Of a stretch of DNA of 64,000 bases, positions 1,864-64,000 are shown piece by piece. The stretch spans positions 32,001 to 96,000 of the IMG/VR virus record IMGVR_UViG_3300038299_000184; one strand, given 5' to 3'. The stretch's first letter is position 1, and each line of letters starts with the position of its first letter. The notes under the pieces are model-generated. The model was given only the letters and a program-made list of their open reading frames with translations. It was not told where the DNA came from and ran no database searches. This DNA comes from a virus. The position numbers were made by a program, and so were the translations under genes.

Positions 1864-2411
1864 GCGATATTGAAAACTACCCAGCAGAGGTAACCCAAGG
1901 ACCTACATTTAACAACGTACCAAATAAATCATACCAAACCACTTGTGGTAAGACCATCTGGGCATCACGTTCAGTATGTGTGTGTATCAAAGTAGTTCTT
2001 CGGGATGATGTTGGTACACCATACGTTCTTATCACAAAACGTGGTAAAGCTGTTTCCAATGAAGGTAGGTGGTGTCTCCCTTGTGGTTACATCGATTTTA
2101 ATGAAACTATCATTGAAGCGGCACAGCGCGAACTCTATGAGGAGACTGGTATCTATGTACCAACCTCGGAACTCAAAGAGTATGAAGTAATGGATACCCC
2201 TTCAAGGGATTCCCTACAGAATGTCACACACCACTTCTTGTTAGATCTCACAGTACCCGACCCAGAAGGTGTACTCCGTGGTGTTAATAAATTCATCGAA
2301 GAGGGTAAGACTAACGATGAGTCCACAGAGGCAGCTTTAGTTACTAAGCTTAATTATAAAGATTATGTTTATGCCTTCAACCACTCACAACGAGTTACCC
2401 CTACAGATTAA
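1860..2411 (+). CDS. Nudix hydrolase (ADP-ribose pyrophosphatase-like)
   Basis: Nudix box GYIDFNETIIEAAQRELYEETGI; W.LPCG and AFNH motifs; overlaps the NMNAT stop (ATGA). Confidence 0.88.
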   Translation: MSDIENYPAEVTQGPTFNNVPNKSYQTTCGKTIWASRSVCVCIKVVLRDDVGTPYVLITKRGKAVSNEGRWCLPCGYIDFNETIIEAAQRELYEETGIYVPTSELKEYEVMDTPSRDSLQNVTHHFLLDLTVPDPEGVLRGVNKFIEEGKTNDESTEAALVTKLNYKDYVYAFNHSQRVTPTD

Positions 2412-2424
2412 AGTGTAAGTTTAT

Positions 2425-2458
2425 AAAAAAGGGACACCACAGTGGTGTCCCTTTTTTT
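2425..2458. terminator. Bidirectional intrinsic terminator between convergent Nudix and portal genes
   Basis: AAAAAAGGGACACCAC-A-GTGGTGTCCCTTTTTTT. Confidence 0.85.
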
Positions 2459-2470
2459 GTGTAATTATTT

Positions 2471-4537
2471 CTAAGCCGTTGGTTCTCCCTCTTCGGGTTC
2501 CTCGACAGGTGCTTCACCTTCTGGTACTTCCTCAGCACCTTCTGGTGCTTCGTCCACAGGGGCTTCCTCAGCACCTTCAAGATCATCCAAGCCTTCATCA
2601 CCACCGAATTCTGGGGTGCCGCCTTCTAGACCATCTCCCATGTCCCCACCAAGTGCTGAACCACCACCCATATCACCACCGACACCAGCTTCAGCAGCCG
2701 CATCAGCTCTGAACTCTGGACCATTTTCAAGAACTTGTGTAATTTCCCAAGTTTTCTTAGCTTCCATCTTTCTCCATGCAAGGTGTTTCTTGATATCGTC
2801 ATCGGACATACCGAGATGTTCCTTGGCTAATAGATACACTGAGAAGAACTGGCTTGAAGCCATGCTGTTAAAGTTGTTCCATTTAAGGTCAAACTGTTGC
2901 TGCTCTCTTAGTGCTAGGAAAGTTGTTGGTAGGCTGAATAATATTTCAATATCAAATTCTCTAATCTCATACTGATCCCAGTAACTTAAACCCAATTCAT
3001 GAAGTAACTTCTCGCGCTCCTCGGGTTTGCACGATGGACGTAGGTTGTTCTTATAATAATCGAGTTCAACCAATTGTAAGTGTTGTTCAAAAATGGTTAC
3101 ATTAGATGGTTTAAGTTGTGTACCATTCTTAGTGTTCTCTGTTACCAGACGCGATTTACAACTTTCATTGTGTAATTTAATACCTTTCAACTTCAAGTGT
3201 GTAATAACACATTTCTTAAGAGCAGATGCAAATCTCTTTTGTACTGCAATAACACGTTCAGCGAACGCAAGCTCTTGCATAGTGATAGTCTGGCCATCAG
3301 ATTGTGCAGAGTCTGGGTTGAGTCGTGTAATAGGCACATGCATATCTTCATACACTTTCTGGTGGAAGTAATCTAACATACCATTAAATCCGCTACCGAA
3401 AGCTTGACTACCTGCAACTCTGGTAACACTAGCACCCTTACCGTCTTTATCGATAGGCACATAAAAATCTTCAGTGATTGAGATAGGGTCGAACTTGTCA
3501 AGTATATTACCTTTACCATCTGTACCTTTTTTCTTCTTAATACCATTAATGAAGTTTCTCATATAGTTACCCTTATCAGAATTAGACATATCACCAGTAG
3601 GTATCTGCCATAATAACCTTTCGGGACCGTTAGCAACCGCATTCATAACAATAGCCTCCTCAATAAGTGATAACTTCTTCTGGGCATCTTGACCCTTAAC
3701 GATGTATGGTATAACGACTTGATGATTACCTAAAGCCTCGTAGTCACCACTATTACAATATGTAACTTGGGAACTAGCCATCGGGATAGCATCATAAGTA
3801 GCAGTAGATTGTTGCATACGGTTAGAACGCTCGGTATATTTATTAAAGTTGGAGTTACTAGGTTTACGAAGTACGAAAGCCTCAATTTCTTCGTTGAAGT
3901 GGTTTCTATAAATTGGTTCGATAGTCTCTGGTGGTATAGACTTAACCCCTAATATACCTAGCTCTGGTTGCAGTATGGAGAACACATTCTCGAATGCAAG
4001 CTCACCAGTGGTGAGAAATTCTTTAAAGTAGTTTTGCCCACGGTCATCAAACTTGAAATAGTCTAGTACTTTAGCGATCTCTTTGTTTACGATCTCTTTA
4101 ATCTCTTCGTCGTAGTCACCCTTCAGTTTACCCACAACAGGCTCTTGCTTATCATGTGAAGCCATACATGAGATAGCTAGTTCGTGAATACATGACTCAA
4201 GTTTCTCCTGTTTGGCTAAATCTCTATAGTCATTGGTTCTGGTGAATTTGTTATCAGCCAAGCTGAATTGTAGTTGTTCACGGAATGATGGACTAGCCCA
4301 GTGTCCTAAAATGCCACCCCCGCCGTTCTTATCAGTTATCCAATCTGGTTTGATTGTAGATACTGATAACCTATCAGTTTCGCGCTCTCTAGTGTCACCA
4401 ACCCTATTCATTACACTAGCTCGGTGTATAGCTTTGTTAAGCTCCAGCTCTTGCTCTGCTTTAAGATTTTGTGTGTCTAATTGGTTGTTAGGTTCCTCAC
4501 CTCTAAGCCAATTCATTGGATTTAACATATTTCCCAT
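2471..4537 (-). CDS. gp20: T4-like portal vertex protein gp20
   Basis: YRDLA, KLSLIEEAIV....PER, EDFYVP, LDYFHQKVYEDMHVPITRL, ITMQELAF..RV..VQKRF motifs of T4 gp20; acidic G/E tail. Start at TAATTA-N5-ATG. Confidence 0.88.
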   Translation of the reverse strand: MGNMLNPMNWLRGEEPNNQLDTQNLKAEQELELNKAIHRASVMNRVGDTRERETDRLSVSTIKPDWITDKNGGGGILGHWASPSFREQLQFSLADNKFTRTNDYRDLAKQEKLESCIHELAISCMASHDKQEPVVGKLKGDYDEEIKEIVNKEIAKVLDYFKFDDRGQNYFKEFLTTGELAFENVFSILQPELGILGVKSIPPETIEPIYRNHFNEEIEAFVLRKPSNSNFNKYTERSNRMQQSTATYDAIPMASSQVTYCNSGDYEALGNHQVVIPYIVKGQDAQKKLSLIEEAIVMNAVANGPERLLWQIPTGDMSNSDKGNYMRNFINGIKKKKGTDGKGNILDKFDPISITEDFYVPIDKDGKGASVTRVAGSQAFGSGFNGMLDYFHQKVYEDMHVPITRLNPDSAQSDGQTITMQELAFAERVIAVQKRFASALKKCVITHLKLKGIKLHNESCKSRLVTENTKNGTQLKPSNVTIFEQHLQLVELDYYKNNLRPSCKPEEREKLLHELGLSYWDQYEIREFDIEILFSLPTTFLALREQQQFDLKWNNFNSMASSQFFSVYLLAKEHLGMSDDDIKKHLAWRKMEAKKTWEITQVLENGPEFRADAAAEAGVGGDMGGGSALGGDMGDGLEGGTPEFGGDEGLDDLEGAEEAPVDEAPEGAEEVPEGEAPVEEPEEGEPTA

Positions 4538-4591
4538 ATGCATAATTAGACTAAAGTGCGTAAAAGACAAGAACATTGCATAATTAAATAC

Positions 4592-5290
4592 ATGTCCAAC
4601 AAATACAAACTTCTTTACGGTAACGCAACTGAAGAAACATATAAGTCACTAGATGTCGTAACTGAGCAGTCTAACAAAGACCAACCCAAGGCAATGTACC
4701 TAGAAGGTGTGTATGGAGAGGCAGGGAAGCTCAACAAGAATGGTCGTGTTTATGACTTCGATGATGCTCTTAAGGATATCGATAGATATAACAACGAGAT
4801 TATCAAATCAAATCGTGCATATAACGAACTAAATCACCCATCTACGCCAGATATCGATCTAGAGAGAGCATGTGATAGAACTGTATCACTTAGAATGGAG
4901 AGTGATGGTACAATTATTGGTCGTTCTCTTGTTATGGATACACCAATGGGTAGAATCCAAAAGGCATTAATAGAGTCTGGTGGTTCTGTTGGTAAATCAT
5001 CCCGTGCTATGGGACAGATTGCTGAGAAGAACCATAGAGGTGACGCATGTAACTATGTTAATGGTGTTCACTACGTTTGTTTTGACTCTGTACAAGACCC
5101 TTCAGTGGGTCGTGCCCTGCCAGACGCCCTACTTGAACAACGAGAGTGGATCATTGGTGAAAACGGTGGATTCCTAGCACAACCACTCGACGATTTCCGT
5201 TCATCACTCGATAATATACCTAAAGTTAAAAGAGATATGTATATCGCTGAACAGTATATCAAGTTCATTAATGCTATTGGTAGAGTTTAA
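4592..5290 (+). CDS. gp21: T4-like prohead protease gp21
   Basis: YLEGVY..A...NKNGRVY, ELNHP, DTPMGRI...L, GKSSRAMG, DSVQDPS motifs. Confidence 0.92.
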   Translation: MSNKYKLLYGNATEETYKSLDVVTEQSNKDQPKAMYLEGVYGEAGKLNKNGRVYDFDDALKDIDRYNNEIIKSNRAYNELNHPSTPDIDLERACDRTVSLRMESDGTIIGRSLVMDTPMGRIQKALIESGGSVGKSSRAMGQIAEKNHRGDACNYVNGVHYVCFDSVQDPSVGRALPDALLEQREWIIGENGGFLAQPLDDFRSSLDNIPKVKRDMYIAEQYIKFINAIGRV

Positions 5291-6378
5291 ATAATTTCTA
5301 AACAACTAAGACTGGTAGGTGTGCATCCTTCGAGCACATCACCAGTCTTAAATATACCACAATGGCGATTGACGACACCAATCTCTACATTAGCAGCACT
5401 TAATTCGTCAGGTATAGTTATAATCATCTGGGTGTCATCGATAACCTGCCAATCTTCGAGTACATAAGCTTGGAATTCTGGGAATTCTGCACTCAATGTT
5501 TCACTCAAACAGAACGGGTTCCATGCTGATGTAGGTATTGAATAACCATCACATGGTGTTAGGAATACCCCATCTAAATCTTCGAATATACTACCATCCA
5601 CAATAACACTCTTACCACCACTAACACAAGGTGGTTTAAATCCTTTGATTGTTGGTAGTCCATTAATTGTGTATGTGTCGGCAACAACCATTTCAGACGA
5701 ATCATCATCAAAGTGGCAATTCAAATCTTGATCTATACCGATATTGTATACTATCTTCTTGATGACACCATCTCTATTAGGTTGCTCTCTGAATATCCAA
5801 CTTTCAACAGTCATACCCATATCAGCGATATAACGAATTTTATCCTCTGAACTAGTGTCTTGGGGATATGTCGTGCTGAAGTTACCATCCCAAGTGACCT
5901 TAGATCTGATCTCTTTACCTGTGTATGGCTCTTTCCATGAGATGTATATATATGGATTGAATACACTAAGGTAGTGTGCAATTATCTCCTCCATATCACT
6001 ACCTTTAGTAGTAACAATCTTTATATTGAAATTTACATCAATTGGTGTTGGTTTGTAATACTTTATCAAACCATCCTCACCAGTGTATTGCTCACTATAC
6101 ATAGTCTCGCGCTTTCCTTCGTTACGATTCACGTTGAGGGACATGCCCGACATAGTGACTGATATGACAGGGAGTTGTATTTGTCCATTGATTTGTATAG
6201 CCTCATGGATCTGACGAGTTTTGTGGCCATACTTAAGAGGGACTGCAATAGTTTGTGCAATAGTATCACGTTTACCTTTATCAGTATAGTTGTACCTATT
6301 TATCTTAACGCCATTAAGTGCTGATAGGAGGTGGAGCTTAACATGGGTTATTTCTCCATTACTGGGTTGGTGATTCAT
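5287..6378 (-). CDS. gp15: T4-like tail sheath stabiliser/completion protein gp15 with C-terminal extension
   Basis: IAVPLKYG..K, LPVISV..., PTPIDVNFNI.I, MEEIIAHYL..FNP motifs; extra ~140-aa beta-rich C-terminus. Confidence 0.7.
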   Translation of the reverse strand: MNHQPSNGEITHVKLHLLSALNGVKINRYNYTDKGKRDTIAQTIAVPLKYGHKTRQIHEAIQINGQIQLPVISVTMSGMSLNVNRNEGKRETMYSEQYTGEDGLIKYYKPTPIDVNFNIKIVTTKGSDMEEIIAHYLSVFNPYIYISWKEPYTGKEIRSKVTWDGNFSTTYPQDTSSEDKIRYIADMGMTVESWIFREQPNRDGVIKKIVYNIGIDQDLNCHFDDDSSEMVVADTYTINGLPTIKGFKPPCVSGGKSVIVDGSIFEDLDGVFLTPCDGYSIPTSAWNPFCLSETLSAEFPEFQAYVLEDWQVIDDTQMIITIPDELSAANVEIGVVNRHCGIFKTGDVLEGCTPTSLSCLEII

Positions 6379-6410
6379 ACTTTTAATTATCTCGTCACTA
6401 ATTAATAACG

Positions 6411-7184
6411 ATGGCAACTCCTCAAACATTTAACCCACTAGATAGCAACTCCTCAACTCTTGGTAATAGTTTTGACCCATTAAAGGGGGTAGGTGGTAAT
6501 ACGAATGCGGTTCAAGCATTATTAGGTTGTGATCAAACCGTTGGGACTAGGGCTTTAATGGAGGGGTTAGCAAATGAGGCAAACGAACTTTATGGCTTGG
6601 ATCTATATTACTATCGCCAAGATTACAACCCTAAGCTTGCACACCCATTATACGGTGACCAAACAGCCCCATTCCTCGGACCTTATCTAATAAAGGCTTA
6701 TGTGAACGTGAACAGTGATACTAGTCTATTATCACAGTTTGGTATTGAAAGTACTAACGATATAGACTTACAGATATCATACGAAGAGTGGAATAGTGTA
6801 TTTGGTGTTGTATCACCACAGGCTGGTGACAAGTTCGAAATCAAAGATTTGCTATGTAATAGACCAAGTGGATTTGTTAGAGCAATCTTCCAAGTGGTGT
6901 CACAGGGTGACTCTGACTTGTTCGAAGCTTCCAAGCGTTGGTTTATATCTGGACAGAGAAGCGACTTTACATGGTTGCCTAATGAGCCTAAAGAAGAGGG
7001 TGGTCAAATGGTACACAGTGATAGTATTGCTGGTATGCTTGATACACTAACACAACTGGGTGAAGAGGGTAACAGTGATAAGAACGCTCTGGATAGAAGC
7101 GTTGATGATGTCGCAGCATCGGATCTGAAAAATCCTAATGATGATGTATACGGTGGATTCTATATCGATGAAAATGATTTATAA
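6411..7184 (+). CDS. gp14: T4-like neck protein gp14
   Basis: L..EA.ELYG.DLYY.R...LYGD, LSQFGIES.NDIDL.IS, PQAGD motifs. Confidence 0.75.
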   Translation: MATPQTFNPLDSNSSTLGNSFDPLKGVGGNTNAVQALLGCDQTVGTRALMEGLANEANELYGLDLYYYRQDYNPKLAHPLYGDQTAPFLGPYLIKAYVNVNSDTSLLSQFGIESTNDIDLQISYEEWNSVFGVVSPQAGDKFEIKDLLCNRPSGFVRAIFQVVSQGDSDLFEASKRWFISGQRSDFTWLPNEPKEEGGQMVHSDSIAGMLDTLTQLGEEGNSDKNALDRSVDDVAASDLKNPNDDVYGGFYIDENDL

Positions 7185-7592
7185 TCAATCCAAGGGCGAG
7201 GTTTTCATTATATGGGCTAAGGGCTTCCTAGAGGATTCTATAAACCCACCATCCATAGAACATATATCATCTATAACCCGTGGTGTATCGGGCGAGAAGT
7301 GGTCTACATAGTTAGGCTGTTTGACTAGGGCACTCCATATGATATTAGCCGCACTAGGCGTAGCTAAACGTTTCTCGTGCCACAGGTGCCACTTGATGTC
7401 TCTACAAATGAGGTGTCGCTTCCACTTGGGTAACACCATTTTAATAGTGGTCTTGACCATATCATTATACTCGGTGTTACTACACCCCAACTCTGGGTGG
7501 TCTTCATTCTGAATCAAATTTTCATCACAGAATTGGATCATGCTCTCCACAATCTCATCTATTATCTTTGATTTACACACCGTCTTAACCAC
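7185..7592 (-). CDS. Hypothetical protein
   Basis: 135-aa ORF filling the gap; upstream TTGACT-N16-TAAGAT-N5-GTG. Confidence 0.6.
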   Translation of the reverse strand: MVKTVCKSKIIDEIVESMIQFCDENLIQNEDHPELGCSNTEYNDMVKTTIKMVLPKWKRHLICRDIKWHLWHEKRLATPSAANIIWSALVKQPNYVDHFSPDTPRVIDDICSMDGGFIESSRKPLAHIMKTSPLD

Positions 7593-7645
7593 ACACTATC
7601 TTACATTAAAGGTTGTAAAAGTCAATACTATAAATAAATATTACC

Positions 7646-8080
7646 ATGGACGATTTAGGACACTGGACTACCGAGCTTGACATACCCGATTATTTCTTTG
7701 GATTTCTTTATAGGATTACTAACACCACTAATGGCAGGATGTATCTGGGCAAGAAGCAAGCCAAGACCATGAAGAAGTTTCCACCACTTAAGGGTAAGAA
7801 ACGTGCTAGGCGTATTGAGAAGGATACTGACTGGAAGAAATATACGGGTTCTAGTAACTACCTCAATGAGGACATTGAAAAGTTTGGTAAGGACAAGTTC
7901 TCATTTGAGATCGTTAGATTTGGTGATTCCAAATCTGAGTTAGCATATCTTGAGACATACTATATCATGGTACTACATGCAGTTATCAAAGAAGAATACT
8001 ACAATGGTATTGTGAACATTAGAATAGGTGGCAATTGTAAACTCAATATCGACGATATTGACAATCTACCGACAATCTGA
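7646..8080 (+). CDS. Short GIY-YIG family nuclease
   Basis: GFLYRITNTTNGRMYLGKK, DWKKYTGSS, FSFEI...E..Y....YYN; TAAATA-N5-ATG. Confidence 0.75.
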   Translation: MDDLGHWTTELDIPDYFFGFLYRITNTTNGRMYLGKKQAKTMKKFPPLKGKKRARRIEKDTDWKKYTGSSNYLNEDIEKFGKDKFSFEIVRFGDSKSELAYLETYYIMVLHAVIKEEYYNGIVNIRIGGNCKLNIDDIDNLPTI

Positions 8081-8266
8081 TCATTTGCGTTGTTTCTTAC
8101 GCTTAGACCGTTTTTTCTTTTTGAACATAGGTTTAACTCTCCTAGCATCACCCCTTGCATATGAGTCATCGTTAGTACGACCATCTTCAATACGAGGACT
8201 ATTTTGACCACCTAATATAGCGGTGTCCATAATCTCATTAATCACCTTCTGAAATTTACTTTCCAT
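8081..8266 (-). CDS. Small late protein with basic C-terminus
   Basis: 61 aa; MESKFQKVINE N-terminus; DSYARGDARR; TAATTA-N5-ATG. Confidence 0.65.
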   Translation of the reverse strand: MESKFQKVINEIMDTAILGGQNSPRIEDGRTNDDSYARGDARRVKPMFKKKKRSKRKKQRK

Positions 8267-36138: not shown

Positions 36139-36190
36139 TAAAGTTACGTTTAGGTGTTGACACCACTGTGGTATTTTGTATTGTTCACCC

Positions 36191-36790
36191 ATGACAGCAA
36201 CCAACATCATCCAGTTCCCTACTAAGTTCACAGGTACAGAACACTCAGTAGCTACAGCAACTGTTGAACCTAAAAAGGTTTCCACAAACCCTTACAAGGA
36301 TCTTTGCACAAGGGGTAGTGCTGCACTACTTCGAAAGAAGCTCAAGGAAGCTGGTTACAATTCTCGTAAGGTGTCTGTGAAAACCGATTTCTACTCAATG
36401 GGTAGTAGCATCAATGCTACCGTCCGTGATGCTAGTGTTGATGACAAGATCGTAGAGACGCTATGTAAAGAAGCTGAGTGTATCTCATACTGTGATTCTT
36501 CTGGTGAGATCCTTGGTGGTGGTAACACTTTCGTCAAATTCTACGTGACTGATGAAGTTACGACTGAACGTAGTGCCAAGTATTTGGTTATCGCTGAAGA
36601 GATCGTGGTTAAGTTGAACGAACTACACACTGAAGTGGTGTACGATGATACCATGTCCTTTAGACGCACATCACCTTACGATGTGTCTATCGAATACTCA
36701 GACCTATCTGGTCGTAACCTTTACCTCCCACAATCTGAACATGCGGCAGCGACAATTGCCAACATGATCTATAAACACAATGCAAACTAA
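36191..36790 (+). CDS. Hypothetical protein (LPD29-like motif)
   Basis: AA..LRKKLK...KVSVK...YSMGSSI; own TTGACA-N16-TATTGT promoter. Confidence 0.5.
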   Translation: MTATNIIQFPTKFTGTEHSVATATVEPKKVSTNPYKDLCTRGSAALLRKKLKEAGYNSRKVSVKTDFYSMGSSINATVRDASVDDKIVETLCKEAECISYCDSSGEILGGGNTFVKFYVTDEVTTERSAKYLVIAEEIVVKLNELHTEVVYDDTMSFRRTSPYDVSIEYSDLSGRNLYLPQSEHAAATIANMIYKHNAN

Positions 36791-39671: not shown

Positions 39672-39702
39672 AAACACCACTCATTTTATGGGTGGTGTTT
39701 TT
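39672..39702 (+). terminator. Intrinsic terminator
   Basis: AAACACCACTCA-TTTTA-TGGGTGGTGTTTTT, preceded by a second hairpin at ~39642-39665. Confidence 0.7.
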
Positions 39703-40650: not shown

Positions 40651-40908
40651 ATGAAATTGGTGTTAGTCAGTTGGTTCCGATATGTATTTTTACAGACCAC
40701 TGACATAAAGATAGGTAGTGAGTATCACGAACTTGAAGCGTGGTTGAAGCGGAAGAGAAAGCTCATACCTCCATCAACATGGGTAATAAGGGAAGTGGTT
40801 ACAAACGATTGGGGAGTGACTTTTATAAAGGTCATGAGGGAAGACCGTTGTATATACACATTCAAACTAAAAACATTCAATTCAATATTTGTAAAGAAAA
40901 GTCGTTGA
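40651..40908 (+). CDS. Hypothetical protein
   Basis: 85-aa ORF. Confidence 0.45.
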   Translation: MKLVLVSWFRYVFLQTTDIKIGSEYHELEAWLKRKRKLIPPSTWVIREVVTNDWGVTFIKVMREDRCIYTFKLKTFNSIFVKKSR

Positions 40909-40938
40909 CACCACTGAATAAATCTGTATAGTCATCTC

Positions 40939-41439
40939 ATGCGACAAAACATTATAGACCAACTCAAACAAGGGGTGTCACCAGACCTAATTGCTGGTGA
41001 TATCTTTGAGGGTATTGGATTACTAAATACTATAGGCACGACCAAAGTACCTATGCCAGAGCCTGCCCAAGATATGTTTAAGGAAACTCAACTATACTAT
41101 GGGGATGCTGGTTACACAACCTTAAGGACTCGTGTGACACCTACACAGGAATTGGTTCATACCAAATTCAGGGGTGATAAAAATAAGTCAGTTACATCCA
41201 CAACTGGTCACGCAGACACCATTAGTGTCTTTATAGAATTTGACGGTGACACACCAGTATCCATTACACTCAACCCAAATGTTGGTGGTAAGGAATACAA
41301 AGTATCTAAATCTATTATGGGTCACGACACCCTACACATTGTCAGTAACAATACTGGCATTATAACCATTACCGAATGTATGGTCAAAGCCATGCACCAC
41401 CAAGACTTAAGCACAACACTTATTACACTCGATGTCTAA
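40939..41439 (+). CDS. Hypothetical protein
   Basis: TTGACA-N16-TATAGT-N6-ATG. Confidence 0.6.
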   Translation: MRQNIIDQLKQGVSPDLIAGDIFEGIGLLNTIGTTKVPMPEPAQDMFKETQLYYGDAGYTTLRTRVTPTQELVHTKFRGDKNKSVTSTTGHADTISVFIEFDGDTPVSITLNPNVGGKEYKVSKSIMGHDTLHIVSNNTGIITITECMVKAMHHQDLSTTLITLDV

Positions 41440-50729: not shown

Positions 50730-51365
50730 ATGTCTACTGAGTACATTTGGTTCAAGGGCGGTAAAGAATCCAAGAGAACTGCCGATCCTAAAGGTGAGAA
50801 ACCTACCCTTGTTAAATCTGGGAATGGTAGGGAAATCAAATACTCGTACCATTATGACATGGAGGCTGATTATGATCAACGAATTATTGGTGCGTCATCC
50901 GAGACACATTTACTAAATGGTGAGAAGGATAGAGAAGGTGGTAAGCCAGCATTTATTGCGTATGATGTACATGGTAAGGTATTACACAGAGCCATGTGGG
51001 AAGGTGGTGTGAAACAGTTGGTAGAGTGGTTATATGAAGATGGGGGTATATACTGGTCAAAGTATTACACTAATGGTGAATTGCACCGAGAGGGTGATAA
51101 ACCCGCCCAGATTTATTATTATTTCAGTGGTGAAATTCGAAATGAAACTTGGTATGATGTTGAAGGTGCCGAACACCGCGATGATGATAAGCCAGCATTT
51201 ATATCATATTTTAAAGACGGTAGTGTTAATCAAAAAAGATGGTATAACCATGGTAATATGCACAGGGGGGATGACCAACCTGCTGTTATAACATACGACA
51301 TTGATGGTAATGTAGAAAAAGAACTATATGTCTATGATGGTGAAGTTTACACACCACAAAAATAA
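50730..51365 (+). CDS. STEYIWF-leader / HRDGDKPA-repeat protein 3
   Basis: Leader plus ~4 repeats. Confidence 0.8.
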   Translation: MSTEYIWFKGGKESKRTADPKGEKPTLVKSGNGREIKYSYHYDMEADYDQRIIGASSETHLLNGEKDREGGKPAFIAYDVHGKVLHRAMWEGGVKQLVEWLYEDGGIYWSKYYTNGELHREGDKPAQIYYYFSGEIRNETWYDVEGAEHRDDDKPAFISYFKDGSVNQKRWYNHGNMHRGDDQPAVITYDIDGNVEKELYVYDGEVYTPQK

Positions 51366-51408
51366 TTGTTGACGAAACTATCGTGGTGTCATTAGTATAA
51401 TTACATTC

Positions 51409-52035
51409 ATGTCTACTGAGTACATTTGGTTCAAGGGTGGTAAAGAATCTAGAAGAACCGCCGACCCTGCTGGTAAGCTACCCCTAAAGGAAGAACTGTC
51501 GGGTGGTAGGGAAATCAACCACAAGTATTTCCCTAGTGGTAATATTGCAAGATCTGTGTATACAACCAAAGGTAAAAGGACAAAGTCAATTGACTATAAC
51601 ATGTTTGGTGGTAAGGTCGTAACAGAATATAGTGGTCGTTCCGCATTTGTTAAGGAAGTATTTAAAAGTGACGGAAGTCGTGTAAAAACTGAGCACTATA
51701 AGAACCTAAAGGACAAGCACCGCGATGGTGATAAACCTGCATATGTTCTGTATATACGGGATAGTAAAGGCACCGATGATGATATACAGGTTGCTGAATA
51801 TTATAAGGATGGTAAGCTTCACCGTGATGGTGACAAGCCAGCGGAAATACGAAACAATGATGACGGCTCAAAGAGGTATGAGACTTATTATCAAAATGGT
51901 AAAAAACACCGCGATGGTGACAAGCCAGCGGATTTGGTATATGAAGATGGCGTGGTCATGCTCAGTAACCAATACAAGAATGGTGTTAGAGTTGAAGGGG
52001 GTAAATATACCCATAAAAATTGGGTACCCTTCTAG
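51409..52035 (+). CDS. STEYIWF-leader / HRDGDKPA-repeat protein 4
   Basis: Leader plus 3 repeats. Confidence 0.8.
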   Translation: MSTEYIWFKGGKESRRTADPAGKLPLKEELSGGREINHKYFPSGNIARSVYTTKGKRTKSIDYNMFGGKVVTEYSGRSAFVKEVFKSDGSRVKTEHYKNLKDKHRDGDKPAYVLYIRDSKGTDDDIQVAEYYKDGKLHRDGDKPAEIRNNDDGSKRYETYYQNGKKHRDGDKPADLVYEDGVVMLSNQYKNGVRVEGGKYTHKNWVPF

Positions 52036-53654: not shown

Positions 53655-53879
53655 AAATGTAATTAGTATAAATTGTTGAGAACACCACTGTTACTACTTC
53701 AATAACCTACAGTGGTGTTCCATTTATAAAACGCGCAACGGTTATAGAGTATTGCACATACAGTTTATCAGAATACTCTATCTTACTAGTACCGTCAACC
53801 TGCTCTAAGCGTAGTCTCATATCCTACGAGGTGTACACAGTACCACATAATGACGTGGTGTCAACGCCTAATTACATTT

Positions 53880-56178: not shown

Positions 56179-56180
56179 AT

Positions 56181-57373: not shown

Positions 57374-58744
57374 ATGAAGAAGTTAACACATGAGGGTATA
57401 CAAAAGTACTTGGATGACAACGACAGAAACATAACACTGTTAAAATATGGTGGTGGGTCAAAAGAAACGACATCCTTGTTTAAATGTGATGAGTGCTCTC
57501 ATGAGTGGACTACTAGTGTTAGAGGTATTAAAAGGTGTAAGGGGTGTGGGCAATGTGCTAAGTTGAACAGGAAGAATGGGTTAACACATGAGAGCATACA
57601 GAAGTACTTGGATGACAATGGCAGAAACATAACACTGTTGAAATACGGTGGTAAGTCAAAAGAATCGACAACCGAGTTTAAATGTGGGGAATGTTCCCAT
57701 GAGTGGACTACTAGTGTTGTTGGTATTAAAAGGAGTATTGAAAAGGGTTATGGCTGTCCTTCATGCTCTAACACATTACCCCTAACACATGAGGACATAC
57801 AACAGCATTTGGATGACAATGACAGAAATATAACACTGTTGAAATACGGTGGTCACAGTCTCTCACCGTCCGAGTTTAAATGTGTGGTGTGTTCCCATGA
57901 GTGGACTACTAGTACCAATAACATTAAAAAGGGTAACGGTTGTGCTTCCTGTTCTGGTAACGCACCACTAACATATGAGAGCATACAGAAGTACTTGGAT
58001 GACAACGACAGAAACATAACACTGTTAAAATATGGTGGTGGGTCAAAGGAAACGACAACCGAGTTTAAATGTGGGGAATGTTCCCATGAGTGGACTACTA
58101 GTGTTTTGTGTATGAAAGGTAGTATTGAAAAGGGTTATGGCTGTCCTTCATGCTCTAACACATTACCTCTAACACATGAGGACATACAACAGCATTTGGA
58201 TGACAATGACAGAAATATAACACTGTTGAAATACGGTGGTGGGGTGGCTTATACAGCCCTGTTTAAATGTGGTGAATGTTCCCATGAGTGGACTGCCCTT
58301 GCTGGTAGTGTTAAAAGAAGCACGGGGTGTCCAGCATGTGCCCAACACCAGACCGAGTCAAAGCAGTCTGCTAAGTTCCGTAAATACCTAACCGATAACA
58401 ACTACGAATTTAGAACGGAATACAGATTCCCCAGCATCAAACATAAAGCCCTACTACCGTTCGATTTCTGTGTACAGCTACAAGATAACTCAATACTCGT
58501 AGTAGAAATTGATGGAATACAACACTTTCAGCCCACCTACTTCGGTTCGGTAAAGGGTAAAACCAAGGAAGAGGTACGGGTATTAAGAGAACAAAACCTA
58601 ACCAACACCCAACACCGCGATGGTATCAAGACTAAAGGCATCGCTGACATGAAAGCTGAGGGTAAGCCAATCGACCTATTACGTATACGCTACGACGAAG
58701 ATGTAGAGGAGATATTCGAGGGGTATATCAGTGGTGTGGTATAA
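57374..58744 (+). CDS. Zinc-ribbon repeat protein with C-terminal Vsr/DUF559-like PD-(D/E)xK nuclease (homing endonuclease-like)
   Basis: Five LTHE.IQ..LDDN.RNITLLKYGG...FKC..CSHEW.....GC..C repeats; EYRF...LPFDF...VEIDGIQHF...RD..K...LLRI.Y. Confidence 0.8.
   Translation: MKKLTHEGIQKYLDDNDRNITLLKYGGGSKETTSLFKCDECSHEWTTSVRGIKRCKGCGQCAKLNRKNGLTHESIQKYLDDNGRNITLLKYGGKSKESTTEFKCGECSHEWTTSVVGIKRSIEKGYGCPSCSNTLPLTHEDIQQHLDDNDRNITLLKYGGHSLSPSEFKCVVCSHEWTTSTNNIKKGNGCASCSGNAPLTYESIQKYLDDNDRNITLLKYGGGSKETTTEFKCGECSHEWTTSVLCMKGSIEKGYGCPSCSNTLPLTHEDIQQHLDDNDRNITLLKYGGGVAYTALFKCGECSHEWTALAGSVKRSTGCPACAQHQTESKQSAKFRKYLTDNNYEFRTEYRFPSIKHKALLPFDFCVQLQDNSILVVEIDGIQHFQPTYFGSVKGKTKEEVRVLREQNLTNTQHRDGIKTKGIADMKAEGKPIDLLRIRYDEDVEEIFEGYISGVV
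57383..58345 (+). repeat. Five near-identical ~190-200-bp intragenic repeats
   Basis: Recurring TTGGATGACAAYGRCAGAAAYATAACACTGTTRAAATAYGGTGGT and CATGAGTGGACT blocks. Confidence 0.9.
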
Positions 58745-58752
58745 TTACATTT

Positions 58753-59121
58753 ATGTCTACTGAGTATATTTGGTTTAAGAAGGGTAAGGAGTCTAGGAGG
58801 ACTGTCGATCCAGAGGGTAAGAAGCCCACTATGGAAAAACTACCAAATGGTTTTCAGATCAAATACTCCTACGACGAACAGGATGGTAATTTAGCTTGGA
58901 GTATCTATTCCAAAGATGGTGTATACCAGAGCTATGGTGATAAACCAGCATCTACTGAGTATTATGCCGATGGCACGATTGAGGCTGAATACTGGGCTAA
59001 AAACGGTGAGCACCACCGCGATGATGACAAGCCAGCAATAATAGGATACCACGAAGATGGGACTATTGATTACGAGTACTACTATACCGATGGTAGTGAA
59101 TACAATTTCGTTAAGCACTAA
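58753..59121 (+). CDS. STEYIWF-leader / HRDGDKPA-repeat protein 8
   Basis: Leader plus 2 repeats. Confidence 0.8.
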   Translation: MSTEYIWFKKGKESRRTVDPEGKKPTMEKLPNGFQIKYSYDEQDGNLAWSIYSKDGVYQSYGDKPASTEYYADGTIEAEYWAKNGEHHRDDDKPAIIGYHEDGTIDYEYYYTDGSEYNFVKH

Positions 59122-59129
59122 TTAATACC

Positions 59130-59642
59130 ATGTCTACTGAGTACATATGGTTTAAGAATGGTAAGGAGTCTAAGAGGACTGCTGACGAACTTGGTAATAA
59201 ACCTACCGTGGTGAAGTTACCCAATGGTGTGGAGGTAAGATATGAATATCATAATGATGGTATATACAAGGAGGAACATTTCCAAAATGGTGAGAAGCAC
59301 CGCGATGGTGATAAACCTGCCCACATTAGTTATAACAGGGATGGGTCTTTGAGTGTTGAGGGATATTTCCAAAATGGTAAGGAACATCGTGATGGTGATA
59401 AACCCAGCTATATTGAATATCATATCAGCGGGTCTGTTCATATAGAGGGGTATTACCAAAACAATCTACCACACCGCGATGGTGATAAGCCAGCGGCAAT
59501 AACTTACTATAAAGATGGGTCTGTCGCATCCGAAGAATATTACAAGAATGGTAGGAGACACCGCGATGGTGATAAACCATCAGAGATAGGTTATAGTGCG
59601 GACGGGACTGTGGAATATAAGTACTACCAAAATGGTGAGTAG
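59130..59642 (+). CDS. STEYIWF-leader / HRDGDKPA-repeat protein 9
   Basis: Leader plus 4 repeats; TAG precedes an in-frame YTPKQ* tail. Confidence 0.8.
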   Translation: MSTEYIWFKNGKESKRTADELGNKPTVVKLPNGVEVRYEYHNDGIYKEEHFQNGEKHRDGDKPAHISYNRDGSLSVEGYFQNGKEHRDGDKPSYIEYHISGSVHIEGYYQNNLPHRDGDKPAAITYYKDGSVASEEYYKNGRRHRDGDKPSEIGYSADGTVEYKYYQNGE

Positions 59643-59668
59643 TACACGCCTAAACAATAATTACATTT

Positions 59669-60022
59669 ATGTTGATTGATCCAATAGTTGAATGGGTAAA
59701 GGATAAGATAGGTGGTGAGAATGCTCGCACCGAAATAACACTACGTGATAAAACATACGTGGTGTCCTATGCCAAACCTAGAACAGGATACGATGCCAAA
59801 TATGCAATGGCAACTGTGTATGTATCAACTGCTAATAATGAGGTATCACTAAAGCTTAACATATTCGTTAACTTGGATGACGATGTACAACTGGCTGATT
59901 ATAACAACTTGGATGATGTGGTGTCACAGGCAGCATCTAAAACTTTGGACGAGGCTCTATTTGAGATGGAGACCATCATTGCTATGGGAGACTTTAAAGT
60001 CTTCGCAGATCTATTGGTGTAA
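59669..60022 (+). CDS. Late small protein, C-terminal GDFxVFxDL family member A
   Basis: Ends MGDFKVFADLLV*; TAATTA-CATTT-ATG. Confidence 0.65.
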   Translation: MLIDPIVEWVKDKIGGENARTEITLRDKTYVVSYAKPRTGYDAKYAMATVYVSTANNEVSLKLNIFVNLDDDVQLADYNNLDDVVSQAASKTLDEALFEMETIIAMGDFKVFADLLV

Positions 60023-60041
60023 TGGGAACCTAATTAACAAC

Positions 60042-60407
60042 ATGGATATAAAATATGATGACATTGTTACATCATTCACTGCTGCTGCTGGGGGTAAGTT
60101 AAACCCACTGCATGATGCATCAAGTATTCTTGGCGAAATGGGTGATGCAGATGCAACAGCATCCGTAGAGGAAACCGAGGGAACTTTTGCCGAGGGAACT
60201 TTTGAATACTGGGCTTATATGGATTCTATTGATGCTTATATATCATTCAACAAAGTTGGGGAGATCGTGGTCAGTTATGGGGCTGAACTACAACCTATAG
60301 ATGAACACATTAGTAAAGTGTTTACCGACAATGTGGAAGCATGGAGGTTCTTCAAGGGTGTCCTCCTATTGGGTGAATTCTCAGTGTTCATGGATTTATT
60401 ATACTAA
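60042..60407 (+). CDS. Late small acidic protein, C-terminal GDFxVFxDL family member B
   Basis: Ends LGEFSVFMDLLY*; TAATTA-ACAAC-ATG. Confidence 0.65.
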   Translation: MDIKYDDIVTSFTAAAGGKLNPLHDASSILGEMGDADATASVEETEGTFAEGTFEYWAYMDSIDAYISFNKVGEIVVSYGAELQPIDEHISKVFTDNVEAWRFFKGVLLLGEFSVFMDLLY

Positions 60408-60415
60408 TTACATTT

Positions 60416-61114
60416 ATGGCTACTGAATACATTTGGTTTAAGAGGGGTAAAGAGTCCAAGAGGTCTGTTGATGAACTTGGTGAGAAACCCCTCTCTGAGA
60501 AGTTACCCAATGGTGCGGAGGTTAAATATGAATACACCCGCCGAGGTGAGCCTCTCACCAAGGGTGTTTATGTTGATGGCGAACTCCACAGTGTTGATGG
60601 AGAACCTGCATATATCCAGTACACACCAGAAGGTGACGTTGAAGGTATTGCATATTATAAAAACGGGAAGGGTCACCGTGCTGGGATTAAACCCGCGAGT
60701 ATATTATATTGGGCAGACGACACCAATAATGTATATATGCAGTATTGGTATACGGACGGGGTACTTACTAAAACCACCGAACATTGGCGGGATGGTAAAC
60801 TCATGAAAGAGATGTACCACAACTCTTTTTCAGATTACCACAGGGATGGGGACAAACCAGCAGTCACCGTATATTCGATTGATGGTACCACTAAGAACTA
60901 TGAGGAGTATTACAAGAATGGTAGGAGACACCGCGATGGTGATAAACCTGCTGGGGTGACTTACTACAATGACGGTAAAACCATATCACAGGAGATATGG
61001 ATGCACGACGATGAATGGCACCGCGAAGGTAAACCCGCGATCATAAGCTATGACCGTGATGGTAATGTAACGGATGAATCCTATTACGAAAACGGTATAG
61101 AGGTAGACCACTAA
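60416..61114 (+). CDS. STEYIWF-leader / HRDGDKPA-repeat protein 10
   Basis: MATEYIWFKRGKESKRSVDELGEKP..EKLPNG; ~5 repeats. Confidence 0.8.
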   Translation: MATEYIWFKRGKESKRSVDELGEKPLSEKLPNGAEVKYEYTRRGEPLTKGVYVDGELHSVDGEPAYIQYTPEGDVEGIAYYKNGKGHRAGIKPASILYWADDTNNVYMQYWYTDGVLTKTTEHWRDGKLMKEMYHNSFSDYHRDGDKPAVTVYSIDGTTKNYEEYYKNGRRHRDGDKPAGVTYYNDGKTISQEIWMHDDEWHREGKPAIISYDRDGNVTDESYYENGIEVDH

Positions 61115-61472
61115 TACAACGCCCATATAACCACTACATTATAATTGTACAAACACCCCGTGGTGTGGCTGACAGGGCTTCCTAATAAGTCCGAACATAT
61201 GATGTAGACGTACTGCTACACCACTGGTATTGTAGGCGTACTGCTACACGTACACTTACTAATATGCTTACCGTATAGATACGAGTACTGTTAGATACGT
61301 GGGCGGCTGCTACGGGGTGTCGTAATAATACTCCACTAGTGGCATTACCAGTGGTGTTCATCGGAACAATCCTCTGGTGTTAAAAAATACTGTTGAAAAT
61401 TTTTACTGTAGAATTTTTTGGGTGCGGGATTTCTGTAACCCATATTTTACAGTACTGATATTTGGGATTTTA

Positions 61473-61895
61473 CTATTTGATCTTATAAAACACCACATTG
61501 GGATCGATACCCTCAGTGGTGTTGTAGTAGTAATGTTTAGTAACCCCTGCAATCTGCATTGCTAATAAACGGTGATATCCATCATCCAGATATCCATCAT
61601 CCCCGTTAACTACTAATGCACCTAAATCACCACCTTCAGAAATCCTCTTTATATGGTATCCAATAGAATCACTGTCGCCCTCGTCCAAATCATCTTTGAT
61701 GGAATCCCAATGATCCGCTATATCCCTCAAAGTAATACCTGCCATTTTAGAGGCAGCGTTATGATTGAAGTGTTCGTGGACATCCATAACGTGGACATCC
61801 AAATTGACATACTGGGGTTCGCCGTAGTCATACGTGACGAGTTCGGTTTTATAGGACTCGTTAATAGTATTGATGGCACTCGTGAACTTACTCAT
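61473..61895 (-). CDS. ParB/Sulfiredoxin-like domain late protein
   Basis: ALVV.....YLDDGYHRL.A; MSKFTSAINTINE N-terminus. Confidence 0.6.
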   Translation of the reverse strand: MSKFTSAINTINESYKTELVTYDYGEPQYVNLDVHVMDVHEHFNHNAASKMAGITLRDIADHWDSIKDDLDEGDSDSIGYHIKRISEGGDLGALVVNGDDGYLDDGYHRLLAMQIAGVTKHYYYNTTEGIDPNVVFYKIK

Positions 61896-62129
61896 ACAGA
61901 CTTAATTACTACATTAGAACACCACTAATATCAATACTAAATTTCTATTGTAATTTTACCAGTGGTGTGAAACTTCTGTGTAATTTTTTTATACTGTAAA
62001 ATTTTTGGGTTACCATTTGTAATAACCCAAGTAGGGATACCCGTATTTTCATTTGTATTTTTACGGGGGTATTAAAAAGTGGTGTCACCCAAAGTGCATT
62101 GACTCCGAATAAACACACCACTTATTTCC

Positions 62130-62158
62130 ATTATATCGAAAATTCCACGACTTGTCAA
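62130..62158 (-). promoter_or_regulatory. Perfect sigma70 consensus promoter, leftward
   Basis: Minus strand TTGACA-N17-TATAAT; no immediately adjacent ORF. Confidence 0.75.
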
Positions 62159-62709
62159 ATAAATAAACACTTTATTTTCGAGGACACCTCTTTTTATTTA
62201 GTCAAGTAAAAAATACGTCATCATCAAAAATAAACATCATCGATAAAATAAGTCATCATGATAACTAAACACCACTGGTAATCAGTACTCGATCCAGTAC
62301 TCAGTGGTGTCCAGTACTATCACCGTATCAGCACACTAACAGGTACTGTATCCTTATGACCACACCACTGTAGTATTATAGGTAGCTGTTAGAGTCTGAT
62401 ACTCCTACTGTCATAAGTCATTGAGCCTTAACATAGACATCATTACGTATGTTGTATTAAGTTATACAGATGGTACTGATACTCAATGAGTTACAAGTAC
62501 ACCACTTAGTAGCTGTATTAGTACTGATACTAAGCTGTTAGAAAGTGGTGTTCACTAACAGGTACTGATTCCTTATGAGGGTATGATCTGTTAGCTTCGG
62601 GGTGTAAGTGGGGTGGTATGATAACTGTATAGTTATAGTATGATAACTGGGAGATATACCAAGTGGTGTAGTGGTGTCTGTTAGATAGTTGTTAGAGAGA
62701 ATTTAGTGT

Positions 62710-62738
62710 TTGACATGTGAATGCCTATGTGGTATAAT
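62710..62738 (+). promoter_or_regulatory. Perfect sigma70 consensus promoter, rightward into the tandem repeat
   Basis: TTGACA-N17-TATAAT; no downstream ORF on this strand. Confidence 0.75.
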
Positions 62739-62793
62739 GGAGGGGTGGAATGTGGTGTGTAATTTGTGAGGGAGAACGCTCCCTCGTAACCCA

Positions 62794-63001
62794 ACACCAC
62801 TGGTGTCAATTACATTATTAGGTTATGTTTAGTATTTTGTACACCACTGGTGTCAATTACATTATTAGGTTATGTTTAGTATTTTGTACACCACTGGTGT
62901 CAATTACATTATTAGGTTATGTTTAGTATTTTGTACACCACTGGTGTCAATTACATTATTAGGTTATGTTTAGTATTTTGTACACCACTGGTGTCAATTA
63001 C
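62794..63001. repeat. Perfect 47-bp tandem repeat, 4.4 copies
   Basis: ACACCACTGGTGTCAATTACATTATTAGGTTATGTTTAGTATTTTGT starting at 62794, 62841, 62888, 62935 and partially at 62982; each begins with the palindrome ACACCA-C-TGGTGT. Confidence 0.97.
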
Positions 63002-63227
63002 TGGAGGATTGTTCCTACAGAGAAAGGTGGTAATACTGTACTCTCCCTCCGCATTTACTAGGTATCCTACTGTACCACCACTGTAGTATGCCCAGTATCT
63101 CTACAGGTATCTCTATTATCCCTCCCTCCTTAATCTCTACTGGAGTATCTGACCTTGAGTGATACTGTAATACCTCTAGTGGTGTGCATCATACTCTTAA
63201 GTATAGGCTTGACACCACTGGAGGTTA

Positions 63228-63590
63228 CTACTGAGGATATCTAGCCATATATCCATCTTCCCACTTGAATCCATGTCTACTGTAGAACTCTAACAGTTCT
63301 TCTATTGATCCATCTATCCCTGCATCATCACCGCCCACTTCTAACTCTATTGTTACGTTGTGTGTATCTGCTAGATTAGTGAGTAGTGTGAGTGCTGTTG
63401 ATGCATGTCCTTTACCTCTATGTTCTTTGTCTACATCTATATTGGATAGTTCCACTGTGTTAGGATCTAATGTACTGAAGTCTAGATATGCCTTACCATT
63501 GTATTGGTCTCGGAACTGTTGTGTTACTGTCTTTGAAGGAGATAGTAATGATTCGTTTATAGTTGTGATGATATTGGTGAACCTGTTCAT
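63228..63590 (-). CDS. GNAT acetyltransferase-like late protein
   Basis: LSNIDVDKEHRGKGHAS.AL (motif A), L.EFYSRHGF; MNRFTNIITTINE N-terminus; TAATTA-N5-ATG. Confidence 0.8.
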   Translation of the reverse strand: MNRFTNIITTINESLLSPSKTVTQQFRDQYNGKAYLDFSTLDPNTVELSNIDVDKEHRGKGHASTALTLLTNLADTHNVTIELEVGGDDAGIDGSIEELLEFYSRHGFKWEDGYMARYPQ

Positions 63591-63615
63591 GATCTTAATT
63601 ACCTTGACACCACTG

Positions 63616-63969
63616 TTAAAATAGGTCCTTGAATACTATGAAATCCCCAAGCTTGGTTAATAATGATACCCTTAGCCAACCCTCGTCTATATCGGTATAA
63701 TGCTCGGAATCTGGAACTTCTGAGTTGTATTCATTATCCACCCCTACGAACATACCCCTACGGTCTATATCTATGGTTACCCACTCATCATCCTTAAAGG
63801 GAATGTTTAACCTCGCTTCATCAGTATTGTCGAGTTCATCGTATATATACATTTTATGTTCCCCAACCGTACCGACCTCATCGCCATCAATAGCAACATC
63901 CTCCCAGTTCGGTTGAAGTGTGCCAATAGAGCTGAACTTGCCTAATATATCCCTAATGTATTCGGTCAT
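63616..63969 (-). CDS. Late small acidic protein, C-terminal GDFxVFxDL family member C
   Basis: Ends LGDFIVFKDLF*; TAATTA-AGATC-ATG. Confidence 0.65.
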   Translation of the reverse strand: MTEYIRDILGKFSSIGTLQPNWEDVAIDGDEVGTVGEHKMYIYDELDNTDEARLNIPFKDDEWVTIDIDRRGMFVGVDNEYNSEVPDSEHYTDIDEGWLRVSLLTKLGDFIVFKDLF

Positions 63970-64000
63970 GATCTTAATTAGCTTGACACCACGGTTATTA

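Follow-up and report, generated by a model that had tools for sequence, protein, structure and literature searches.

The heptamer GTGGTGT (complement ACACCAC) was studied in a 64,000-nt stretch of virus DNA, hereafter the window, which comprises bases 32001-96000 of the 127,787-base IMG/VR virus record IMGVR_UViG_3300038299_000184. CheckV put the completeness of this record at 44% and the size of the full genome at about 290 kb. By a simple longest-ORF procedure 210 open reading frames (ORFs) were obtained, which cover 89% of the record, and the genes of the window were named from PHROG matches as follows.

2471-4576, minus strand: portal (PHROG)
4556-5290: head maturation protease (PHROG)
5287-6429: sheath stabiliser gene
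9597-11096: major head (capsid) protein (PHROG)
Elsewhere in the window: HNH homing endonucleases, two RNA ligases, a tRNA nucleotidyltransferase and a nicotinamide phosphoribosyltransferase (PHROG)

The phage is a marine and very distant member of the T4 superfamily, since its capsid protein is 33% identical to those of T4-like cyanophages, the nearest named phages, no GenBank phage is close (megablast of window positions 20000-28000 against GenBank phages gave no match), and near-identical DNA is present in 13 seawater/marine metagenome runs from 13 studies.

Abundance of GTGGTGT inside and outside genes

Exact copies of GTGGTGT on either strand were found 100 times in the window, between 2069 and 63992 (52 on the plus and 48 on the minus strand), with 67 within ORFs and 33 intergenic or at ORF edges. 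An earlier reading, made from the letters of the window only, had counted about 90 copies; every position it listed was present, and its base-composition estimate of about 5 came to about 5.6 when recomputed. Dinucleotide-preserving shuffles of the window gave 12.32±2.82 copies with a maximum of 21, and none of 100 shuffles reached the observed number. Over the whole record 198 copies were counted (91 forward, 107 reverse), compared with Markov expectations of 11.3, 25.0, 45.2 and 70.3 for orders 0, 1, 2 and 3. GTGGTGT was the top 7-mer under each of these orders and kept that rank under the maximal-order model (146.4 expected, z 7.2), and AGTGGTGT was the top 8-mer under order 0, with 97 copies versus 3.4. 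The distribution along the record is roughly Poisson (variance/mean 1.3-1.5) and runs of one orientation could not be observed (103 orientation runs, 99.4±7.0 expected). Two simple origins were rejected: slippage of a triplet repeat, because GTGGTGG has only 52 copies, and a primase site of the T4/T7 type, because the base 3' of the word shows no preference (A 47, C 56, G 43, T 52).

By location, 128 copies of the record lie inside ORFs, 63 are intergenic and 7 straddle ORF edges. The genic copies were compared with a synonymous-codon shuffle within each gene, in which every protein (and hence all dipeptides) and the codon usage stay fixed and codon-pair context is left free. This null gave 44.6±5.1 copies (largest 58 in 300 shuffles) against the 128 observed, and a shuffle of codon order gave 21.2±4.8. 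When the 7-mers in genes were ranked against the synonymous null, GTGGTGT came first (128 vs 45.1, z 12.3). Sense and antisense strands carry 63 and 65 genic copies, and each of the six frame/strand classes lies 1.8-5-fold above the null; no polarity was observed. Among the one-mismatch neighbours of the word, 20 of 21 remained at 0.69-1.70 of the same null, and the outlying GCGGTGT (3.29) derives from a protein repeat. The excess is 2.5-3.1-fold in each partition of the genome, namely the left arm, the 53 genes shared with the relative, those genes of the core span that are not conserved, and the right arm. Along gene bodies the copies are evenly spread, and their flanks are almost flat. The effect reaches the encoded peptides, with Trp-Cys found 23 times versus 7.6 expected (Cys-Trp 5) and Thr-Pro 142 times versus 82.

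Restriction words are strongly avoided in the record, where CCGG and CCWGG have 0 copies versus 374 and 179 expected (order-1, both strands counted), GGCC is depleted sixfold (60 of 380 expected) and TCAGG/CCTGA 23-fold (10 of 230). A synonymous shuffle that forbids new CCGG, CCWGG, GGCC and TCAGG gave 47.2±6.0 copies of GTGGTGT (largest 58 in 25 shuffles), again compared with 128. An excess of CCTGT/ACAGG (279 vs 131) was rejected as a motif, since it follows from the avoidance of CCWGG and CCTGA and is only 1.3-fold over the synonymous null. From the layered avoidance it is concluded that the phage DNA is probably unmodified at the avoided sites and that selection on k-mers is effective in this lineage. 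The suggestion that GTGGTGT is a modification target found no support.

The synonymous and avoidance-constrained nulls, together with the frame and partition tests, support a genome-wide signal at the DNA level and not a codon artefact. The sequence-only reading had been ready to give the signal up if a codon- and dipeptide-preserving null absorbed the excess and the intergenic density were ordinary; the excess survives the null, and the density between genes is 4.5 per kb versus 1.13 per kb within them. Its remark that the portal, protease and capsid genes are free of the word proved right, with 0 copies in each. For the scaffold gene, named there as well, the absence stood and the name did not: ORF 8683-9561 has no copy, and PHROGs identified no scaffold gene. 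Together with the sheath stabiliser gene these four ORFs span about 6.4 kb without a single copy; the coding average predicts roughly 7. These genes are under the strongest constraint, and no others resist the word.

A second apparent motif, TCGCGGTG/CCATCGCG (30 copies of TCGCGGTG), is not a DNA signal but the antisense of the protein repeat HRDGDKP. The multigene family that carries this repeat occupies about 49000-61100 of the window (e.g. 49016-49828, 51409-53136, 54479-56178 and 59130-61114) and 104-106 kb of the record, and only sub-threshold MORN_2 matches were obtained for it with Pfam.

Intergenic copies in promoters, hairpins and a tandem array

In the 14.1 kb between ORFs, GTGGTGT is the dominant signal, with 63 copies versus 3.2 expected (for AGTGGTGT, 43 versus 0.9), and the consensus of these copies, CAGTGGTGTCAA, is longer than the coding one. 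Upstream of 36 of the 210 genes, TTGAC[AT] is found 30-40 nt before the start codon, in 16 cases exactly at -34. About 17 nt further on, a TAnnnT-like box lies at -11..-6. Ten of the 36 carry TTGACACCAC, mostly as TTGACACCACTG, an exact 12-mer that recurs 16 times. In front of 12 genes the first base of ACACCAC lies between -31 and -35, and in front of 9 genes that of GTGGTGT lies between -19 and -26. Shine-Dalgarno sequences are near-absent (GGAG upstream of 2 of 152 genes), and TAATTA occupies -11..-6 in 45 of these 152. From the spacing of the sigma70-like promoters to the ATG we infer that transcripts start at or next to the ATG and that leaderless early mRNAs are widespread. The promoter-like elements in the window are listed below.

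36157..36193, plus strand: promoter-like TTGACACCACTG-N-TATTGT, with TTGACA 34 nt before the ATG at 36191 (record 68191)
40905..40941, plus strand: promoter-like TTGACACCACTG-N-TATAGT, with TTGACA 34 nt before the ATG at 40939 (record 72939)
51351..51411, plus strand: ACACCAC, TTGACG, then GTGGTGT 6 nt 5' of TATAAT, with the ATG at 51409; belongs to the class with GTGGTGT at -26..-19
58731..58755, plus strand: GTGGTGTGGTATAATTACATTT-ATG, in which GTGGTGT abuts the TATAAT box 7 nt before the start codon
63592..63613, minus strand: GTGGTGTCAAGGTAATTAAGATC followed by the ATG of gene 63228-63590 (GNAT acetyltransferase)
63971-63992, minus strand: near-identical copy of GTGGTGTCAAGGTAATTAAGATC, upstream of gene 63616-63969

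All plus-strand positions that had been given for TTGACACCAC (36157, 40905, 63209, 63604 and 63983) were recovered, as were minus-strand cases, at 53855 and 56536. The attribution of these sites to -35 boxes holds for the genes that start at 36191 and 40939. It fails at 63604 and 63983, where the adjacent genes are on the minus strand and the word, turned the other way, lies 17-23 nt before their start codons. Promoters that bear GTGGTGT cluster just right of the window, at 96-109 kb of the record, among small ORFs, and this region looks like a host-takeover early module. Genes of the small-gene promoter region include the GNAT acetyltransferase 63228-63590 (minus strand), an ADP-ribosyltransferase (ART-PolyVal, L036:878-1399, minus strand) and a Ser/Thr kinase (L036:13800-15626, plus strand).

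Inverted pairs ACACCAC...GTGGTGT within 45 nt were found 16 times, and 12 of them are intergenic. Five of six folded pairs gave hairpins with an A-run and a T-run (-16.9 to -21.6 kcal/mol, z -4.4 to -6.4), some of which directly precede TTGACA. The terminator stems proposed from the sequence were found again at 2424-2462, 39664-39712 and 53672-53728, with z scores of -4.4 to -5.5 in the same energy range. The hairpins and the repeat-rich features to their right are:

2425..2457: hairpin AAAAAAGGGACACCAC-A-GTGGTGTCCCTTTTTTT, bidirectional and intrinsic-terminator-like, between a NUDIX gene (plus strand) and the portal gene (minus strand); -21.6 kcal/mol, z -5.5
39672..39700: hairpin AAACACCAC...GTGGTGTTT followed by a T-run; -16.9 kcal/mol, z -4.4
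53677..53722: hairpin GAACACCACTGT...ACAGTGGTGTTC, stem of 12 bp, upstream of the minus-strand gene whose end is at 53654; -19.5 kcal/mol, z -4.7
61160..63220: ORF-poor zone with 24 of the 26 copies of 61160-63992, in both orientations and often as ACACCACTGGTA / TACCAGTGGTGT
62794..63001: 47-bp tandem array of 4.4 copies, 100% identical, each unit containing the 13-bp palindrome ACACCACTGGTGT next to CAATTA

The concentration of copies at the right end of the window had been estimated at about 25, which is close to the 26 found. This region had also been described as a non-coding right end; it is not an end of the genome, as the window ends inside the record, and 61.1-63.2 kb is an ORF-poor zone. 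Gene direction switches there, and other short repeated words, GTACTG and CTGTTAG, are present. Each unit of the 47-bp array is headed by the word, as had been seen before (the array begins with ACACCAC), and the minus strand reads TTGACACCAGTGGTGT-N-TACTAA. The complete identity among the units points to very recent amplification. Close palindromes of the form ACACCA-N1-TGGTGT occur 9 times, five of them in the array, and the reverse arrangement is found 0 times at gap 1 and 2 times at gap 2. An Rfam scan of the window at the gathering threshold returned no family.

Relatives, candidate host and population

Relatives were drawn from IMG/VR by capsid search. The closest, G001 (61.7 kb), has a capsid identity of 88-89% and about 72% nucleotide identity and is syntenic to 11.7-79.9 kb of the record. 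It contains 43 copies of GTGGTGT, i.e. 0.70 per kb compared to 0.73 per kb in the aligned part of the studied phage, and its genes hold 36 copies versus 15.1±3.1. Eight of 28 aligned sites are kept in G001 (about 3.3 expected), which is 2.4 times the background of 11.9% for any 7-mer. Loci with a capsid identity of 73% or less show no excess (e.g. 4 vs 2.0, 2 vs 1.6 and 4 vs 2.4), and their top words are mostly confined to one frame; GTGGTGA in L011 and TACTGGT in L010 were rejected as variant motifs on this ground. Since G001 shares the density while its sites turn over, and more distant relatives have no excess, the signal is young, lineage-specific and kept as a density rather than as fixed sites. 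The avoided restriction words have other ranges: CCWGG is absent in all loci with a capsid identity of at least 53%, CCGG is lacking or almost lacking in no loci but the closest four, three of which have 0 copies and L010 2, and TCAGG is avoided in the studied phage and L010 but not in the closest relative.

The only bacterial capsid match was a 3.4-kb contig (75% over 190 residues) in an Alphaproteobacteria metagenome bin, G004, and a portal search of the bin gave no match. The link of this bin to the phage is weak, as it consists of a single 3.4-kb contig with no portal match. The bin (2.7 Mb) contains 465 copies of GTGGTGT versus 434 of the reversed control. In a table of 401 Pseudomonadota genomes, inspected by eye, the density stayed at or below about 0.30 copies per kb and the ratio to the control at or below about 3.3, and the copy density of the phage is about 5-9 times that of the surveyed bacterial genomes. 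Profile searches of the 44%-complete record for RecA, the RecB-type nuclease family PDDEXK_1 and UvrD-helicase gave no match; searches of it for MotCF and AsiA were likewise without a match, as were their positive controls.

Contigs of 4 metagenome runs that cover window positions 44001-64000 are at least 99% identical to it, with 3 differing positions, and therefore have no power to test constraint on GTGGTGT. Loose contig ends at 55390 and 58742 were rejected as structural variants, as they correspond to sequence upstream of paralogous genes. Genes like those of homing endonucleases (HNH; treble-clef zinc finger DUF4379/DUF723) lie among the core genes at 7646-8080, 11203-12672, 57344-58744 and L036:2832-4283, one of them directly 3' of the capsid gene. 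Left of the window, at record 99-14621 (L038), a tRNA cluster of 16 genes is located, which includes two tRNA-His genes (anticodons GTG and ATG).

Candidate explanations and comparison with known systems

The copies inside genes are free of frame, symmetric between strands, uniform, without flanks, and turn over between relatives. These properties rule out a purely regulatory site and leave either a word whose number matters, of the Chi or uptake type, or sequence-biased repair; the intergenic copies indicate that GTGGTGT is used at functionally constrained places as well. The enrichment, its independence of coding, the positions of the copies and their confinement to this lineage are direct results; a protein that reads the word, and its function, are inferred. 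The explanation tentatively preferred here, with a probability that falls somewhat short of even, is that GTGGTGT serves a DNA-handling protein as a recognition word, specific to this lineage and maintained at high copy number. If so, a reader encoded by the phage is favoured to some degree, and a host enzyme such as AddAB or RecBCD takes the smaller yet still considerable share. The preference for the phage rests on the confinement of the word to one lineage, on relatives that avoid the same restriction words and have no GTGGTGT, and on the weak host candidate, which is not enriched.

According to this proposal, GTGGTGT, weakly extended to CAGTGGTGT, would be kept over the whole chromosome on both strands and independently of genes, and would be read collectively by a machine that handles duplex or unwound phage DNA, for which a nuclease-helicase, a recombination or packaging enzyme, or a coating or regulatory DNA-binding protein are candidates. 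The many sites would be individually weak and their number would matter, following the logic of Chi sites and DNA uptake sequences. Selection or transmission bias for copy number might then put the word where its cost is least: beside the -35 hexamer of early promoters, where TTGACA already gives ACA, in both arms of terminator hairpins, where any complementary pair fits, in the tandem array, and within genes through synonymous and even amino-acid changes. Intergenic copies may double as parts of terminator/early-promoter cassettes of the PeSL (promoter-early stem-loop) type. Part of the intergenic pattern is cheap placement, and another part could be true regulation. By analogy, terminase cutting at dispersed GTGGTGT could also fall within this class. 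A narrower suggestion, which we consider doubtful, is a phage-owned 'self' mark, where a nuclease-helicase, packaging or coating protein of the phage recognises the word on its own, apparently unmodified DNA. If true, phage DNA would be spared, repaired or packaged, host DNA, 5-9 times poorer in GTGGTGT, would be degraded or ignored, and the virus would own a Chi-like system of self/non-self recognition.

Several results weigh against a recognition word. No reader was found among the protein families searched, which says little in a record that is 44% complete. An ordinary operator would account better than a scanning signal for the fixed promoter positions and the 13-bp palindromes, and the conservation of sites (8 of 28) is modest. 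In G001 the coding excess falls largely into one frame on each strand (16 and 12 of 36), so that a codon-context bias is possible there in part, and TTGACACCAC is absent from its 61.7 kb. The nearly equal counts for word and control in the candidate host bin, itself weakly linked to the phage, speak against a host Chi as the form that the word takes. Finally, a functionless mutational or repair bias would give the same scattered pattern.

An operator or half-operator for a regulator of early promoters is unlikely, and it deserves to be weighed first among the alternatives. Here a phage or host factor would bind (CA)GTGGTGT at -31..-25 or -23..-17 of sigma70-type promoters and switch early genes off or on, and the genic copies would have arisen incidentally, say as sites of low affinity or as what is left of shuffled cassettes. 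The fixed promoter positions agree with binding by a phage protein. The sharp placement relative to start codons, the 16 occurrences of TTGACACCACTG before small genes of the host-takeover-like region, the ACACCA-N1-TGGTGT palindromes in promoter spacers and in the array, with the opposite arrangement missing at gap 1, and the longer intergenic consensus all argue for such an operator. Regulator sites are, however, normally not enriched in genes, whereas here 128 copies face 45 expected with the proteins held fixed. Moreover, these copies have nearly no flanking consensus, occupy all frames, and are even along gene bodies and gene classes, only about 15 of the 198 copies are found in close palindromes, and G001 keeps the coding excess with no TTGACACCAC.

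It is quite improbable that GTGGTGT is the Chi site of a host RecBCD or AddAB enzyme, accumulated on both strands by the phage, with its evidently unmodified DNA open to restriction, so that the exonuclease is stopped from any end of a permuted genome and repair is promoted. The word is short, asymmetric and G/T-rich with a TGGTG core, like E. coli Chi GCTGGTGG as given in the available part of the sources, and is found about every 1.3 kb on each strand, independently of frame, in a Poisson-like scatter and at a density that is kept despite site turnover. The avoidance of CCGG and CCWGG indicates strong pressure from DNA-cutting defence, and the accessible part of one study describes enrichment of the host Chi in some phages (PMC3784561). 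On the other hand, no enrichment was seen in the weakly linked bin and no strong excess in the 401 Pseudomonadota genomes read by eye, L010 and L011 share the avoidance of CCGG, CCWGG and GGCC and do not have GTGGTGT, and a host Chi offers no reason for the fixed promoter positions. In the part available, a survey of Proteobacteria gives only five words of the GCTGGTGG type (bioRxiv 10.1101/2020.08.13.249359).

A similarly low probability is given to a functionless product of sequence-biased mutation, mismatch repair or gene conversion in this lineage. Very-short-patch repair, for comparison, shapes k-mer frequencies in enteric bacteria. The uniform excess across gene classes, the Poisson-like scatter without polarity and the fast turnover (20 of 28 sites not conserved in the close relative) would all be expected from biased repair, as would a density that is highest where constraint is lowest, with 0 copies in the portal, protease and capsid genes. 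Against it stand the one-mismatch neighbours, 20 of 21 of which show no depletion and no strong enrichment, the placement at fixed promoter positions and the use in terminator stems, the conservation of sites at 2.4 times background, and the failure to find a candidate enzyme. An artefact of codon usage, dipeptides, protein repeats or restriction-site avoidance is hardly credible: it does account for GGTGGTG, TGGTGA and GATGGTG, which are codon-driven with one frame dominant and only about 1.4-1.5-fold over the null, for TCGCGGTG and for the CCTGT excess, but as a coding effect it is already refuted for GTGGTGT by the three nulls, as far as these reach (codon-pair context is free in all of them), by the enrichment in six frames and by the intergenic excess.

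With a reader, the recognition word would offer a tractable route to the discrimination of self and host DNA in a T4-like phage without modified bases, or to exonuclease, recombination or packaging control; with none, it would be a strong case of a viral genome shaped by sequence-biased repair. The case is clean in that the word passes protein-preserving nulls, is restricted to one young lineage and stands beside complete avoidance of restriction sites. Bacterial chromosomes have short words, iterated many times, that bend even protein sequences, namely Chi, uptake sequences and HIP1; to our knowledge none has been described for a lytic phage, and a search of the literature on GTGGTGT and on over-represented or Chi-like words in phages found no lytic-phage case.

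Of these, the DNA uptake sequences (DUS of Neisseria, USS of Pasteurellaceae) and HIP1 of cyanobacteria occur about once per kb on both strands and in all frames, with inverted pairs as terminator stems. DUS and USS are words of bacterial chromosomes kept by the competence machinery, and HIP1 is kept by an unknown process. GTGGTGT resembles them in its frequency of about 1 per kb, its presence on both strands and in all frames, its peptide effect, its inverted pairs in terminators and a density that persists as individual sites change. A phage would not be expected to rely on uptake through a competence receptor, and we know of no uptake-like drive in lytic phages, so the likeness is one of analogy only. 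The stoperators of cluster A mycobacteriophages are asymmetric sites that overlap the -35 hexamer (TGTCAA being the reverse complement of TTGACA), occur at dozens of genome sites, and lie between genes in the direction of transcription. GTGGTGT shares the asymmetry, the overlap with the -35 hexamer and the recurrence along the genome; it differs in that its orientation is balanced in genes, without regard to transcription, and that most copies lie inside genes.

Chi sites, of 5-8 nt, are over-represented in the host chromosome and usually point along the direction of replication; the helicase-nuclease that recognises them then attenuates degradation and loads RecA. With Chi the word has in common that it is short, asymmetric and G/T-rich, that its excess is independent of frame, that the TGGTG core is that of GCTGGTGG, and that many sites would act collectively. 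Unlike Chi, it has no polarity, is denser between genes, takes fixed promoter positions and was not seen to be enriched in the weakly linked host bin or in the surveyed genomes. The Chi of Bacteroides fragilis AddAB was unknown in 2010, as far as the accessible part of the report goes (PMC2887965). The T4-like phage IME08 provides a precedent for a short dispersed word on both strands at which, according to the available part of the study, a phage enzyme acts, as its terminase cuts with sequence preference at dispersed TTGGA|G sites (PMC3105952). The same part makes no claim that TTGGA|G is over-represented, which sets it apart from GTGGTGT.

The intergenic copies come closest to the PeSL cassettes that Arbiol and colleagues are said to have described in T4-like phages in 2010. 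In these phages stems and promoter flanks differ between lineages, as stated in the accessible part of a later paper (Comeau et al. 2014, PMC4122927). The composites found here likewise consist of an A-run/T-run hairpin followed by a sigma70-like early promoter (e.g. GTGGTGTTTTTATTTGACA at L037:1905-1955); a hairpin followed by TTGACA is also present upstream of record 108554 and 124212, with TTGACA at -34 and a TAnnnT box. A lineage-specific shared sequence is present too, as the 16 exact copies of TTGACACCACTG are concentrated at record 96-109 kb among small ORFs, with none in the core region of G001. As to indel borders at the cassettes, the alignment with G001 ends outside the cassette-rich region and the four runs are at least 99% identical. 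PeSLs are intergenic, whereas the 7-bp core is enriched 2.8-fold in genes, in all frames and without cassette flanks; with 128 of 198 copies inside ORFs, a cassette reading covers only the intergenic third. With these intergenic copies the PeSL idea reaches a marine and very distant branch of the T4 superfamily, in which promoters are placed as if most early mRNAs were leaderless.

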